Part shown: positions 60,431 to 63,870 of the stretch, in pieces
Position numbering within the stretch: the stretch's first letter is position 1
Layout of the letters: every line of letters starts with the position of its first letter
From: a virus
Direction: 5' to 3' (one strand)
Virus record (IMG/VR): IMGVR_UViG_3300021961_000023
DNA: 64,000 nt
The notes under the pieces: generated by a model
Databases searched by the model: none
Told to the model about the DNA's origin: nothing
Seen by the model: only the letters and a program-made list of their open reading frames with translations
Program-made: the position numbers and the translations under genes

Positions 60431-61082
60431 CTTTTTCAAGTTTTATGATGATAGTAATGCGAATCACGTAGCAGCAGTTCAATGGTTAGAGGATAACCTA
60501 CCTGCTGAGTTTCTGGATGATGCAGAGACTGATTGGATTGGAATGTTTAGAACCAAACCACCTACACCAGAGGTTCTTGCAGTTCCTTATTTTAACCAAG
60601 TAGATAACTACAGAGATGCACATAGAACTTGTAACAGTTCATCGTGTGCTATGTGTCTTGCTTTCCTCAAGCCAGGCAGCATCAAAGGCGATGATGAATA
60701 CGTTAAGAAAGTATTTGCGATTGGCGATACTACTGACCATGCGGTACAAACGAAGGTACTTGCAGGTTATGGAGTTAAGTCACACTTTAGTTACAATCTT
60801 TCTTTTGCTGACATTGATAAGAGTCTCGATGCTGGGAAACCTGTTGTTATTGGTATCCTTCACAGGGGTTCTTTATCTGCACCTACTGGTGGGCACATGT
60901 GTGTTGTAATCGGAAAGACACCAGATGGTAAAGGATACTATGTCAATGATCCATATGGATCTTTAAATGATAACTATACAGGTCCAGTAACAAATGGTAA
61001 GAAGACCATTTACACTAAAGCAGTTCTTAAGCATCGTTGGTGCCCAGGTGGCAACGATGGTTGGGGCAGAATTTTCGACTGA
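60411..61082 (+). CDS. Peptidase C39-like (papain-fold) protein, probable cell-wall hydrolase
   Basis: VPYFNQ, catalytic-type CNSSSCAM, GGHM and VNDPYG motifs. Confidence 0.75.
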   Translation: MTLDLHNFFKFYDDSNANHVAAVQWLEDNLPAEFLDDAETDWIGMFRTKPPTPEVLAVPYFNQVDNYRDAHRTCNSSSCAMCLAFLKPGSIKGDDEYVKKVFAIGDTTDHAVQTKVLAGYGVKSHFSYNLSFADIDKSLDAGKPVVIGILHRGSLSAPTGGHMCVVIGKTPDGKGYYVNDPYGSLNDNYTGPVTNGKKTIYTKAVLKHRWCPGGNDGWGRIFD

Positions 61083-61096
61083 TAGGAGAACAAACA

Positions 61097-61771
61097 ATGG
61101 CAAGAATCGATTTACACAACTTCTTCAAGTTTTATGACGAGAAGAATCCTAATCACGTTAAAGCAGTTCAGTGGTTGGAAGATAATCTACCAATCAAATA
61201 TCTTGAAGATAACGTAGATTGGGCAGAGATTTATCGCGGAAAAAAGTCTAGTGCTGCACCAGCATCCGCTGCTGCAGCTGCACCAGCACCTGTAACTGGT
61301 GGTGATGATGTTCCTCAAATGGGCATCAAGTTGATTAAGGAGTTTGAGGGATGTCACTTAAAGGCATATCCTGATCCTCTGACTGGTGGACTTCCAATCA
61401 CAATCGGTTGGGGTTCTACCCGTAAGAAAGATGGATCAGCATTCAAACTTGGTGATACATTAACACAGGCAGAAGCAGATTCACTTCTCATTGAGCAGTG
61501 TAAGAAAGAGTTTCTACCTGCACTTCGTAAAATCCCACACTGGAATGAAATGTCAGATGGAAAAAGAGGGGCTCTTCTCAGCTTTGCTTATAATCTCGGT
61601 GCTGGTTTCTACGGTGGCGATAACTTTAATACTATTACTAAACGCTTGAAGAATAAAGAGTGGGACTTAGTGCCTGATGCTCTTTATCTCTATCGCAATC
61701 CTGGTTCAAATGTTGAGGCAGGATTAGCACGTAGAAGAAAGGCAGAAGGTGAATCCTGGAAGAAGGGATAA
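61097..61771 (+). CDS. GH24 phage lysozyme (endolysin)
   Basis: IKEFEGCHLKAYPD...TIGWG, ALLSFAYNLG and GLARRRKAE motifs; SD AGGAG. Confidence 0.9.
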   Translation: MARIDLHNFFKFYDEKNPNHVKAVQWLEDNLPIKYLEDNVDWAEIYRGKKSSAAPASAAAAAPAPVTGGDDVPQMGIKLIKEFEGCHLKAYPDPLTGGLPITIGWGSTRKKDGSAFKLGDTLTQAEADSLLIEQCKKEFLPALRKIPHWNEMSDGKRGALLSFAYNLGAGFYGGDNFNTITKRLKNKEWDLVPDALYLYRNPGSNVEAGLARRRKAEGESWKKG

Positions 61772-61774
61772 ATA

Positions 61775-61914
61775 GTAACAATCATAACTGATTCTTGATC
61801 TTAACTGATCTGAATCTACATAGTCCGAGTCCTCTAGGACTTGGTGAATACTTTACTTTTTAAACAAACTTCGGTCTGTTTTGTTTAGTACACACTAAGT
61901 CATAGAGGATTCTT
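61775..61914 (+). promoter_or_regulatory. Highly structured 5' leader of the beta-barrel gene
   Basis: Late promoter at 61769-61774; 19/20-bp pairing of 61827-61846 with 61893-61912 covering the SD; cUUCGg hairpin inside. Confidence 0.6.
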
Positions 61915-63870
61915 ATGTCTTACGCTACAAGGGCGCTTGCTGTAGCGTCTGCTCTTTTAATGGGGGCACCAGCAGCAGTTTTAGCACACACCAACTCAAT
62001 CGGATACGTTGGTGATGGAGCAGGTTCAGTTACATTCTGGTATGGTTCTTGGCACCAAGGAACCACATTTACTGAAGGTTCTATGACTCTTCAAGGTGTC
62101 AACGGTAATGCATTTGCACCTACAACTGTCAACTGGACTCTTCTTCAAAATACAACACCAACAGGATTAATACCAGGAACAAACTATTTCCAATCTGACG
62201 GAACTAATCTTGTTCCTTATGGCGATCCAACAGCATTATATGGGATGGCAAGTTATACTTGGCAAGGTGTCACATTTAATAACTTAGGTGCAGGAGATTA
62301 TCAGTTCCAATATAATCCTATTGCACAACCAACGATGGACTGGGATCCATCATCGCAAGTTATTCGCACAGGAACCGTAACTCTTTCTGCTGGTCTTCTT
62401 TCTGGAGATGCTGATGGCGATGGCGTCAACGATTCTACTGGAGCTCCTGTAACACCACCTACTCCACCAACACCAACCGTAGTATCAACTGCCGCTGGTG
62501 CTGATATTGTTACAACCACAACAACCTCTGGAACCAGAACAGTAACCAATAATCCTCATCGTCATGTAATGGGAACTGATGCAAATGGTAATCAAACTGA
62601 ATCTCACTATACTGATACTCAAGTTATTACCATTCCTACAACCACAACAGTTACAACTACAACTCCAACAACTGTTGATACTTACAGTGATGGAAGCACA
62701 GTTACAACAAATGGAACTCCAACATCAACTTCTGTAACCACAGATGATAATGCTGGAACTTCTGTTGTTACACAGGCAACAACACCTGATTGGATAAAGA
62801 CAAGAACCTATGATGTTCAAAGATCTGCTTATGTTCCTGCTGCTGCTCCAACGATTGTCAATACTCCTGCATGGTCAAAATCTGAAGGTAATGGAAAGCA
62901 AAGAGTTGATCTTCATGTAACCACTGAAGTTACAACCCCAACAGTTAGAGCAGTATCAACCACTGCAGTTTATACAAAGGTTTATAGTAATGGTGCTCCT
63001 ACAGTTGTTACAACCGATGCACCAGTAGTTACTTATGAAACCAGTTCAGTATATAATGAATATCATACTTACAGAGATTGGTCTGGACGTATTGATCAAC
63101 TTGAAGTTCTTGATGGTATTAGTAATGCGATGAATGGTTTATTGAACCATGAACCAATCACTAATCATAAGAAGAGATTTAGAGTCTTTGAAAACAATCG
63201 TTTTGCACATTCTTATAATGCTGACGGTTATGAAGCAAAATCTACAGTATTCGGTGGTGGATTTGAATATGACATTACAAAGGGATGGACTGCTGGCGCA
63301 CAATACAATGATCTCTACACAGAACTCTTAGGTGTTGATAGTATTTCACATCTTAAGAGAAAGCACGTTGGAATCTTTAATAGTTTCCATGGTAAAGATG
63401 TAGCACTTGTTACAAATGCAGGTGGTTCTAAGGACAAGTATGATTATGCGAGAACAGTTGAATGGACATTTGGAAACTGGGCAAAGGTAGATGGGCAACA
63501 ATGGTGGATTAATAATAGACTCTATCTCAATAACTCGGGATGGATCAAACCCTTCTTAGGTCACACTGTTCATAATGTTCAAAGAGATGCTTACACCGAA
63601 ACTGGTTCGCCACAATCAGCAAGAAGTGTAGCAGCATTCAATCAAACAACTCATGTTGGTGAAGCAGGTCTCAAGTTAGAGACTCGTTTTGGTGGTAAGA
63701 AAAAAGACCTAATCGGTGTGAGCGTAGAAGGTGCTTATGCAACCGACAACTCTTATGGCGTAGTTGCTGCTGTAGATTATAATCAAGTTGTGTTTGTTGA
63801 GGGTTCTCATGGGGTAAATAACGGAGTTACTAACAACTCTGTTGCAGCAAAGGTAAAATTCAGATTCTGA
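61915..63870 (+). CDS. Secreted autotransporter-like outer-membrane beta-barrel protein
   Basis: Signal peptide ending AVLA; Thr/Pro-rich stalk; amphipathic strands; YTETG motif; terminal KVKFRF. Confidence 0.75.
   Translation: MSYATRALAVASALLMGAPAAVLAHTNSIGYVGDGAGSVTFWYGSWHQGTTFTEGSMTLQGVNGNAFAPTTVNWTLLQNTTPTGLIPGTNYFQSDGTNLVPYGDPTALYGMASYTWQGVTFNNLGAGDYQFQYNPIAQPTMDWDPSSQVIRTGTVTLSAGLLSGDADGDGVNDSTGAPVTPPTPPTPTVVSTAAGADIVTTTTTSGTRTVTNNPHRHVMGTDANGNQTESHYTDTQVITIPTTTTVTTTTPTTVDTYSDGSTVTTNGTPTSTSVTTDDNAGTSVVTQATTPDWIKTRTYDVQRSAYVPAAAPTIVNTPAWSKSEGNGKQRVDLHVTTEVTTPTVRAVSTTAVYTKVYSNGAPTVVTTDAPVVTYETSSVYNEYHTYRDWSGRIDQLEVLDGISNAMNGLLNHEPITNHKKRFRVFENNRFAHSYNADGYEAKSTVFGGGFEYDITKGWTAGAQYNDLYTELLGVDSISHLKRKHVGIFNSFHGKDVALVTNAGGSKDKYDYARTVEWTFGNWAKVDGQQWWINNRLYLNNSGWIKPFLGHTVHNVQRDAYTETGSPQSARSVAAFNQTTHVGEAGLKLETRFGGKKKDLIGVSVEGAYATDNSYGVVAAVDYNQVVFVEGSHGVNNGVTNNSVAAKVKFRF

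Follow-up and report, generated by a model that had tools for sequence, protein, structure and literature searches.

A leader RNA with two mutually exclusive folds upstream of an autotransporter-like gene in T4-like freshwater cyanophages

In a 64,000-nucleotide (nt) stretch of virus DNA (IMG/VR record IMGVR_UViG_3300021961_000023; hereafter the window), a long leader precedes a gene for an autotransporter-like outer-membrane protein (61915-63870). The window comes from a T4-like freshwater cyanophage of the Kyanoviridae, and its nearest isolate record is that of Synechococcus phage DSL-LC02, with 82% nucleotide identity over the leader region. We propose, with a probability of about 0.5, that this leader is a delayed-folding or gated cis-acting translational limiter with two exclusive folds, which would resemble the leader of the MS2 maturation gene without being related to it. 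According to this proposal, a rod-like helix (61827-61846 with 61893-61912, and 61818-61823 with 61913-61918) would hide both the Shine-Dalgarno (SD) sequence and the AUG, and the equilibrated mRNA would be untranslatable. During synthesis, the strand complementary to the ribosome-binding site (RBS), here called the anti-RBS strand, would first be captured in a local hairpin (61825-61844). Some nascent transcripts would stay open, with the other strand of the helix weakly self-paired, for long enough to allow ribosome loading, and would then collapse into the closed helix, either spontaneously or through a putative factor. The outcome would be that a strong late promoter yields its protein only in small, rationed quantity. 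Four elements of this scheme are inferred: where the transcript starts, how translation is affected, how long the open form lasts and what purpose it serves. The leader family is new, with more than 120 distinct sequences in two unrelated sequence types and no Rfam entry; it belongs to an already known kind of regulator, in which the leader sequesters the RBS and a transient hairpin competes. All features described below lie on the + strand, and coordinates are positions in the window.

A long helix buries the ribosome-binding site and the start codon

An initial annotation of the leader, made from the sequence alone, had described a left arm (61827-61846, GAGUCCUCUAGGACUUGGUG) that pairs with a right arm (61893-61912, CACUAAGUCAUAGAGGAUUC) at 19 of 20 positions, with two G-U pairs and one G.A mismatch (61837/61902). 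The left arm carries CCUCU and forms the anti-RBS strand, and the right arm contains the SD AGAGGA (61904-61909) and ends 2 nt ahead of the ATG at 61915. Every coordinate of that description was checked against the sequence, and all of them held. Folding with RNAfold gave one dominant structure, consisting of a 5' hairpin (P1), a long rod and an apical domain, and both arms are paired with each other in this minimum free energy (MFE) structure. The helix proved longer than had been claimed: ACAUAG at 61818-61823 pairs with UUAUGU at 61913-61918, burying the AUG, and the first five of these pairs are kept in 73-76 of 76 leaders and the sixth in 29 of 71. In the RNAfold structure, the rod consists of 61818-61823 paired with 61913-61918, a 3-nt bulge, 10 base pairs (bp), the G.A mismatch and 9 bp, and it is topped by the apical domain (61847-61892). 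This domain comprises a UACU/AGUA stem, U-rich internal loops and the cUUCGg hairpin (61862-61881) that the annotation had pointed out. The leader is far more stable than expected by chance, with an MFE of -50.2 kcal/mol for 161 nt (z = -6.85) and of -35.6 kcal/mol for 101 nt (z = -6.27), and none of 200 dinucleotide shuffles was as stable.

Homologous leaders were collected with four queries: a protein query gave 30 loci from viral contigs, a pattern for the leader type of the window (type 1) gave at least 119 further stretches, a second pattern gave 38 stretches with a different, shorter leader type (the short type, or type 2), and a query with the barrel domain gave 80 metagenome loci. The long-range helix over -30 to +3 was present in the MFE structure of all 125 distinct leaders from viral and metagenome contigs, including those of the short type. 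For covariation, 76 type-1 leaders were aligned with MAFFT and compared with 500 shuffles. Across these leaders, 96.9% of the cells of the window fold are paired, and changes on both sides were found at 8 pairs, of which 7 belong to the long helix and its apical extension, and in 50 cells, counts that none of the 500 shuffles reached. The covariation measures collapsed once the 3' partners were slid by 1-3 columns, and RNAalifold recovered the same long helix. The arms change in concert between variants, for instance from CUUGG/CUAAG to UUCGG/CUGAA or CUAGG/CUUAG, and by our reading of the alignment a mismatch or bulge in the middle of the helix is always retained. The apical domain is strongly conserved in sequence within type 1, is reduced in the isolate phage DSL-LC03 and differs in type 2.

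The short type (28 sequences compared) has 106 nt from TAAATA to ATG and no SD and is unalignable with type 1, and it forms an equivalent 21-bp helix that ends 7 nt before the AUG and contains three covarying pairs. Since G-U pairs are common in the helices, it is RNA, and RNA of this strand, that is constrained. Judged from these sequence comparisons, the closed fold is a selected RNA structure.

These data bear on a DNA-level explanation, in which the leader would be a recombination flank for passenger swapping or a set of protein-binding inverted repeats, and the RNA folds would be incidental. Leader, signal peptide and barrel are indeed conserved, in contrast to a passenger that varies in length and sequence, and quasi-palindromes can be homogenized by template switching. 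However, the G-U pairs that are frequent in both folds are mismatches in DNA or on the other strand, pairing is preserved through sequence change, and an unrelated leader sequence shares the architecture. We therefore give this explanation very little credence.

The 5' hairpin P1 (61790-61816, GAUUC..GAUC-loop-GAUC..GAAUC), also recognized in the initial annotation together with the repeated AACUGAU (at 61786 and 61803), is present in the MFE structure and is 99-100% paired in the 76 leaders. Covariation is uninformative for P1 because this hairpin hardly varies. Its conservation exceeds what base pairing needs and hints at a protein or RNA that recognizes it, or at a role on the DNA level. 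P1 contains two GATC sites and a repeated CUGAUY motif, and its sequence is near-invariant across the 76 leaders.

The absence of a known family, as stated in the initial annotation, was borne out. The leader had no Rfam match in a search up to E = 10 that took in the cyanophage and freshwater motifs of that database; the top-scoring model, a generic miRNA hairpin (E = 0.57), reached 19 bits where its threshold is 211, and the leaders of L149, L187 and L200 had no match at gathering thresholds. In the literature on cyanophage autotransporters and cyanophage RNA motifs, no description of this leader was found. A ligand riboswitch or an RNA thermometer would agree with a long structured leader that has two alternative folds. 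Beyond the lack of an Rfam match, neither a junction nor a pocket is present, and the apical domain is dispensable or replaced in variants, being nearly absent in DSL-LC03 and different in the short type, so that the control by a small-molecule ligand suggested earlier is unlikely. A thermometer would have to melt at physiological temperature, and the closed fold, with -35 to -47 kcal/mol, is much too stable for this. Both devices are hardly credible.

The topology of the leader, of the 1:2/2:3 kind, is also that of a transcription attenuator, in which the long helix with a U-rich run would terminate transcription, possibly leaving a separate small RNA of about 140 nt, and the local hairpin would act as antiterminator. 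A U-rich run of 4-6 nt does follow the helix directly in most variants. In the window, however, these U's pair with ACAUAG, the stem encloses a 46-nt domain, and a terminator scan did not call the leader helix. Moreover, the long helix of L200 is followed by AGAAAUG, with no U run, and a canonical terminator stands upstream of TAAATA instead. Attenuation is thus very improbable. A leader peptide was considered as well and rejected, as the leader has no ATG and the sole TTG frame is broken by 1-2-nt indels in homologues.

A competing local hairpin is retained in homologous leaders

As claimed earlier, the left arm can also fold on itself, forming CCGAGUCC-UCUA-GGACUUGG (61825-61844; 8 bp, -12.1 kcal/mol). 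In this hairpin, the strand 61825-61832 pairs with 61837-61844 around the loop UCUA, which excludes the long helix. The eighth pair and the tetraloop are peculiar to the window, the norm of the family being a 7-bp stem with a 5-6-nt loop. The hairpin forms in the same register in all 40 distinct type-1 left arms (-5.4 to -14 kcal/mol), and its 7-bp core is 98.1% paired across the 76 leaders. The changes in it are mostly from G.U to G-C or A-U, with three further cells changed from G-C to A-U, and A.C never occurs.

Divergent leaders keep the hairpin too. In the L024 lineage, an insertion extends it to 10 bp; the 5' half (10 nt) is unpaired in the final fold and therefore pairs only in the hairpin. 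L200 has a perfect 9-bp competing hairpin in an otherwise divergent leader, and DSL-LC03 keeps at least 6 hairpin pairs though its apical domain is almost absent. In the short type, an upstream CAACUCA has two possible partners, the UGAGUUG of the left arm and a second copy of this 7-mer near the 5' end, giving a chain of exclusive pairings. The 7-mers UGAGUUG and CAACUCA each occur twice in this type (e.g. L149:2875-2993), forming hairpins with an identical stem base. Homologous leaders thus retain both mutually exclusive folds, contrary to the refuting case named in the initial annotation, in which neither helix would be conserved, and the local hairpin is conserved and probably selected. 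The expectation that both helices covary was borne out for the long helix (0 of 500 shuffles as high); covariation of the local hairpin is weak, with change counts that do not exceed those of shuffles.

The alternative fold had further been expected to leave the SD free, which is partly correct. The long helix is opened, and the right arm weakly folds on itself in a hairpin with the start region (61896-61922, CAUA:UAUG, -5.2 kcal/mol), which belongs to the alternative state only and was also seen in the simulations described below. As modelled, the ON state is weakly structured, not free.

The different strength of covariation in the two helices is one of the points in favour of a static closed leader, an explanation that we take seriously and regard as rather unlikely. 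Here, the long helix would be the sole functional structure, serving as a lock on the RBS, as a 5' stabilizer against RNase E or as an RNase III site, a trans-acting factor (a helicase, nuclease, other protein or small RNA) would open or cut it, and the local hairpin would either aid folding transiently or simply result from the quasi-palindromic nature of the arms. The leader offers about 25 stacked pairs plus the apical rod, enough for the length of an RNase III substrate (about two turns of coaxial double-stranded RNA), as 6 + 10 + 9 bp with the 3-nt bulge and a single mismatch between them. The strong sequence conservation of P1 and of unpaired nucleotides in the apical domain suggests a binding partner; the mismatch or bulge in mid-helix is always kept; and L207 and L229 tolerate a weakened hairpin. 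On the other hand, L024 keeps a 10-nt segment that pairs only in the hairpin. A search across the window for a second copy or a complementary RNA recovered only the two arms themselves, leaving no complementary RNA elsewhere in the window that could open the lock. By our reasoning, cleavage of the helix would not free the SD either, because the lower 16 bp would stay annealed.

Folding energetics and kinetics are compatible with a transiently open nascent leader

The closed fold dominates at equilibrium. Over 123 leaders, the median MFE was -44.2 kcal/mol, compared to -28.2 kcal/mol for the most stable fold with the hairpin intact, favouring the OFF state by about 16 kcal/mol; the corresponding values for the window are -46.9 and -31.2 kcal/mol. 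Since the leader is closed at equilibrium and the conserved gene must be expressed, non-equilibrium or assisted opening is needed, and the local hairpin is the only opening route encoded in cis. On the nascent chain of the window, the local hairpin is the MFE structure while the 3' end moves from 61844 to 61901, and no longer once it reaches 61902. In most leaders, the hairpin is the MFE structure until the 3' end lies at -17 to -7.

Barriers calculated with findpath from the relaxed alternative state had a median of 8.7 kcal/mol (range 2.6-17.5), and in the short type the barrier from an idealized nascent state was 7.8 kcal/mol. Kinetics were further followed by Gillespie simulation with base-pair moves on the segment 61818-61935. 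In a small number of runs at 400 (arbitrary) time units per nt, the window sequence stayed open in 9 of 15 runs (at +16 to +21) and locked in the other 6, the L228-type leader was open in all three runs (at +12; none locked), and the L024-type leader was open in 4 of 6 (at +12) and locked in 2. With slower elongation, at 2000 time units per nt, one of two runs on the window was open (at +14) and one locked. Fixed-length simulation (3 x 120,000 steps; elapsed time unrecorded) gave no transition. The runs on growing chains make a kinetic split of nascent chains between the two folds plausible.

Several findings weigh against the delayed-folding proposal. In type 1, the barrier from the idealized nascent state is 0-3 kcal/mol, meaning that strand displacement would be nearly barrier-free, and the simulations are few, run in arbitrary time units and include neither a polymerase footprint nor the 5' portion of the leader. 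The alternative state leaves only about 6 of 15 nt around the start unpaired. At the hairpin itself, double changes occur in only 3-4 cells with change counts not above shuffles, substitution events that break its pairs are by our reading about as many as those that keep them, and per sequence the hairpin is only moderately unusual compared to shuffles (median percentile 0.04). L207 and L229 compensate changes in the long helix yet lose outer hairpin pairs, which leaves at most 5 bp or no dominant hairpin. The competing pairing of the short type is just a 7-bp complement and could stem from a duplicated hairpin. With regard to trapping, the 0-3 kcal/mol estimate argued against it, and the barriers from constrained states together with the simulations, in which the right arm self-folds, make a trap plausible. 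The initial annotation had proposed, as one option, a switch that is metastable in the ON state and then locked OFF and that would ration a potentially toxic membrane protein; the energetics and the crude simulations fit the metastable scheme, and the weak covariation of the hairpin and its weakening in L207 and L229 count against it.

Comparison with the MS2 maturation leader and other leaders

In the leader of the MS2 maturation gene, a metastable hairpin holds the SD-complementary strand, and about one second of delay is enough for a ribosome to bind, which allows brief translation on nascent chains of a protein that is wanted in low copy (PMC4615214). One feature is shared with this system: at equilibrium, the SD is paired to an upstream strand and the RNA is untranslatable in MS2 (PMC4615214), and this closed arrangement is found in the cyanophage leader. 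That a small hairpin sequesters the upstream strand on the nascent chain is, for the cyanophage leader, a prediction from folding models; the hairpin is conserved, with weak covariation. There is no homology in sequence or structure, the cyanophage helix being rod-like whereas MS2 has a four-arm cloverleaf (a 5' hairpin and three arms). The cyanophage RNA is an mRNA made from double-stranded DNA (dsDNA) by a DNA-dependent RNA polymerase, in contrast to a replicating RNA genome, and its hairpin abuts the apical helix with the 3' half, which would make strand displacement easy, unlike in MS2. The likeness is a functional analogy only; the mechanism was established experimentally in MS2 and is read from sequence here.

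A bolder claim, which we make tentatively and consider somewhat doubtful, is that this leader is the first delayed-folding, self-timing translational limiter in a dsDNA phage, giving each late mRNA a brief window for ribosome loading before an irreversible lock. If so, how many chains stay open and how many lock would depend on how fast the phage-modified RNA polymerase moves, and hence on the energy or light state of the host. In a stronger version, a putative phage or host factor would hold the small hairpin and thereby time the production of a surface protein beside the lysis genes. T4-like late promoters are simple and leave little room for tuning, and post-transcriptional devices must therefore set the protein dosage. 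Should the kinetic scheme be true, a mechanism known experimentally from RNA coliphages would extend to dsDNA cyanophages, and a compact part of natural origin would become available for the pulse-limited expression of membrane proteins. The leader also flags the autotransporter-like gene as one that is probably under tight dosage control, a lead to its role beside the lysis genes.

Other leaders offer partial parallels. In rpoS-type leaders (opened by anti-antisense small RNAs), in the RNase III-activated leader of lambda N and in that of adhE, an upstream strand occludes the RBS and opening is needed. The cyanophage leader is likewise long and RBS-occluding, and here no complementary sequence is present elsewhere in the window. 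The 5' untranslated region of Escherichia coli ompA is about 130 nt long, carries hairpins and stabilizes the mRNA with its RBS open; it is of similar size and also precedes an outer-membrane protein gene, whereas the RBS is buried in the cyanophage leader.

A late-promoter-like motif precedes the entire folded leader

The motif GATAAATA at 61767-61774 fits NATAAATA, the late promoter of cyanomyoviruses (PMC2984593), and overlaps the stop codon of the lysozyme gene. From this motif, the transcript is predicted to start near 61780, which would give the late mRNA a leader of about 135 nt. TAAATA is found at a fixed distance in nearly all homologous leaders. In the window, the distance from TAAATA to ATG is 147 nt for the gene at 61915, compared to 26-48 nt for about 17 other genes, and the leader is therefore unusually long. 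A possible mis-call aside, only three open reading frames (ORFs) have such a far longer distance (9550, 115 nt; 41649, 108 nt; 61915, 147 nt). Over the whole window, 19 of the 22 ATAAATA motifs are on the + strand, and their total is not above chance (18.3 expected).

The position of this motif bears on another explanation, taken from T4. In the T4 genes e, soc, 49 and I-TevI, hairpins at the initiation region block binding of the 30S subunit (PMC3014915). The cyanophage leader resembles these cases in that it belongs to a T4-like phage, has a helix that holds the SD and/or AUG, and stands in the neighbourhood of lysis genes. By analogy, RNA read through from upstream would be inhibited, and the translated RNA would start within or after the left arm. 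The sequestration of both SD and AUG, which here occurs in a T4-like phage and immediately behind the gene for a lysozyme, agrees with this promoter-dependent bypass, whose paradigm is documented (PMC3014915), as does the short type, in which the predicted late start lies within the 5' arm (GUUUCAAC) of the first hairpin. Given a start within GUUUCAAC, read-through and late transcripts of the short type would differ in the folding of their 5' ends. In T4, however, the late promoter stands in the 5' strand of the hairpin, so that late transcripts escape, whereas here the motif lies upstream of the whole structure: the sole NATAAATA is 52 nt upstream of the left arm, upstream of both arms, at a conserved position. 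No TAAATA was seen between the arms in the leader sequences read, and a scan for sigma-70-like promoters over 61000-62500 found no site, including between the arms. The helix is also much longer than the e-type hairpins of T4 and has a competing hairpin. Bypass is accordingly quite improbable.

The downstream gene and its neighbours

The leader directly follows a phage lysozyme gene (61037-61771), ahead of which a C39-like peptidase is encoded. The downstream gene (61915-63870) encodes a protein of 651 amino acids (aa) in which a signal peptide is combined with an autotransporter beta-barrel at the C-terminus (Pfam PF03797, E = 3.2e-10), and on these two grounds the earlier label of an outer-membrane protein is a fair description. 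Among isolate phages, only DSL-LC02 and DSL-LC03 have the gene.

Matches of the type-1 pattern precede this gene family with three exceptions, namely two decayed copies and one chance match. Of the decayed copies, L148 has kept the whole leader, with an ORF that ends after two codons (ATG TCT TAG), and L060 has kept the leader up to the apical domain, where unrelated sequence begins. When the leader was compared by BLAST with three large phage records, one copy was found in each of the two type-1 records, both of which are near-complete. A repeated cassette like the PeSL elements of T4 was ruled out by this single copy in both records.

The constant parts of the gene family (loci L002-L267) are the leader, the signal peptide (MSYA.[RK]ALA.ASALL) and the C-terminal beta-barrel, which has a mean column identity of 69% and ends in the residues KVKFRF. 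The passenger part is very variable, with complete ORFs of about 530 to about 880 aa among the listings read, and mature N-termini are of several kinds (..AFADT, ..AVLAH, ..SSAIAAPL, ..AFAGN). From sequence, this variation looks like a cassette-like diversification of a surface-exposed domain. L200 (L200:2250-2430; protein start MNNIQRTL..), which is a divergent member, lies among nine tRNA genes, and a canonical terminator (GAGAGGGGGUGACCCCUCUUUUUU) stands immediately upstream of its CATAAATAG. The L200 leader lacks both an SD and a U run but retains the 9-bp competing hairpin and the long helix.

Within the coding sequence, a further hairpin covers codons 3-11 in the signal-peptide region of the window (61921-61948, ACGCUACA/UGUAGCGU). 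The family form (GGCGCU..AGCGUC, at about +16 to +36, codons 3-12; -6 to -15 kcal/mol) was seen in most of 76 distinct 5' coding sequences, including those with the short leader type and L200. This coding hairpin could be part of the leader unit, an extra block on initiation or a side effect of Ala/Leu-rich codons. In L252, an Ala-to-Val change (GCG to GUG) is matched by a synonymous change from GCG to GCA, and the pair is retained.

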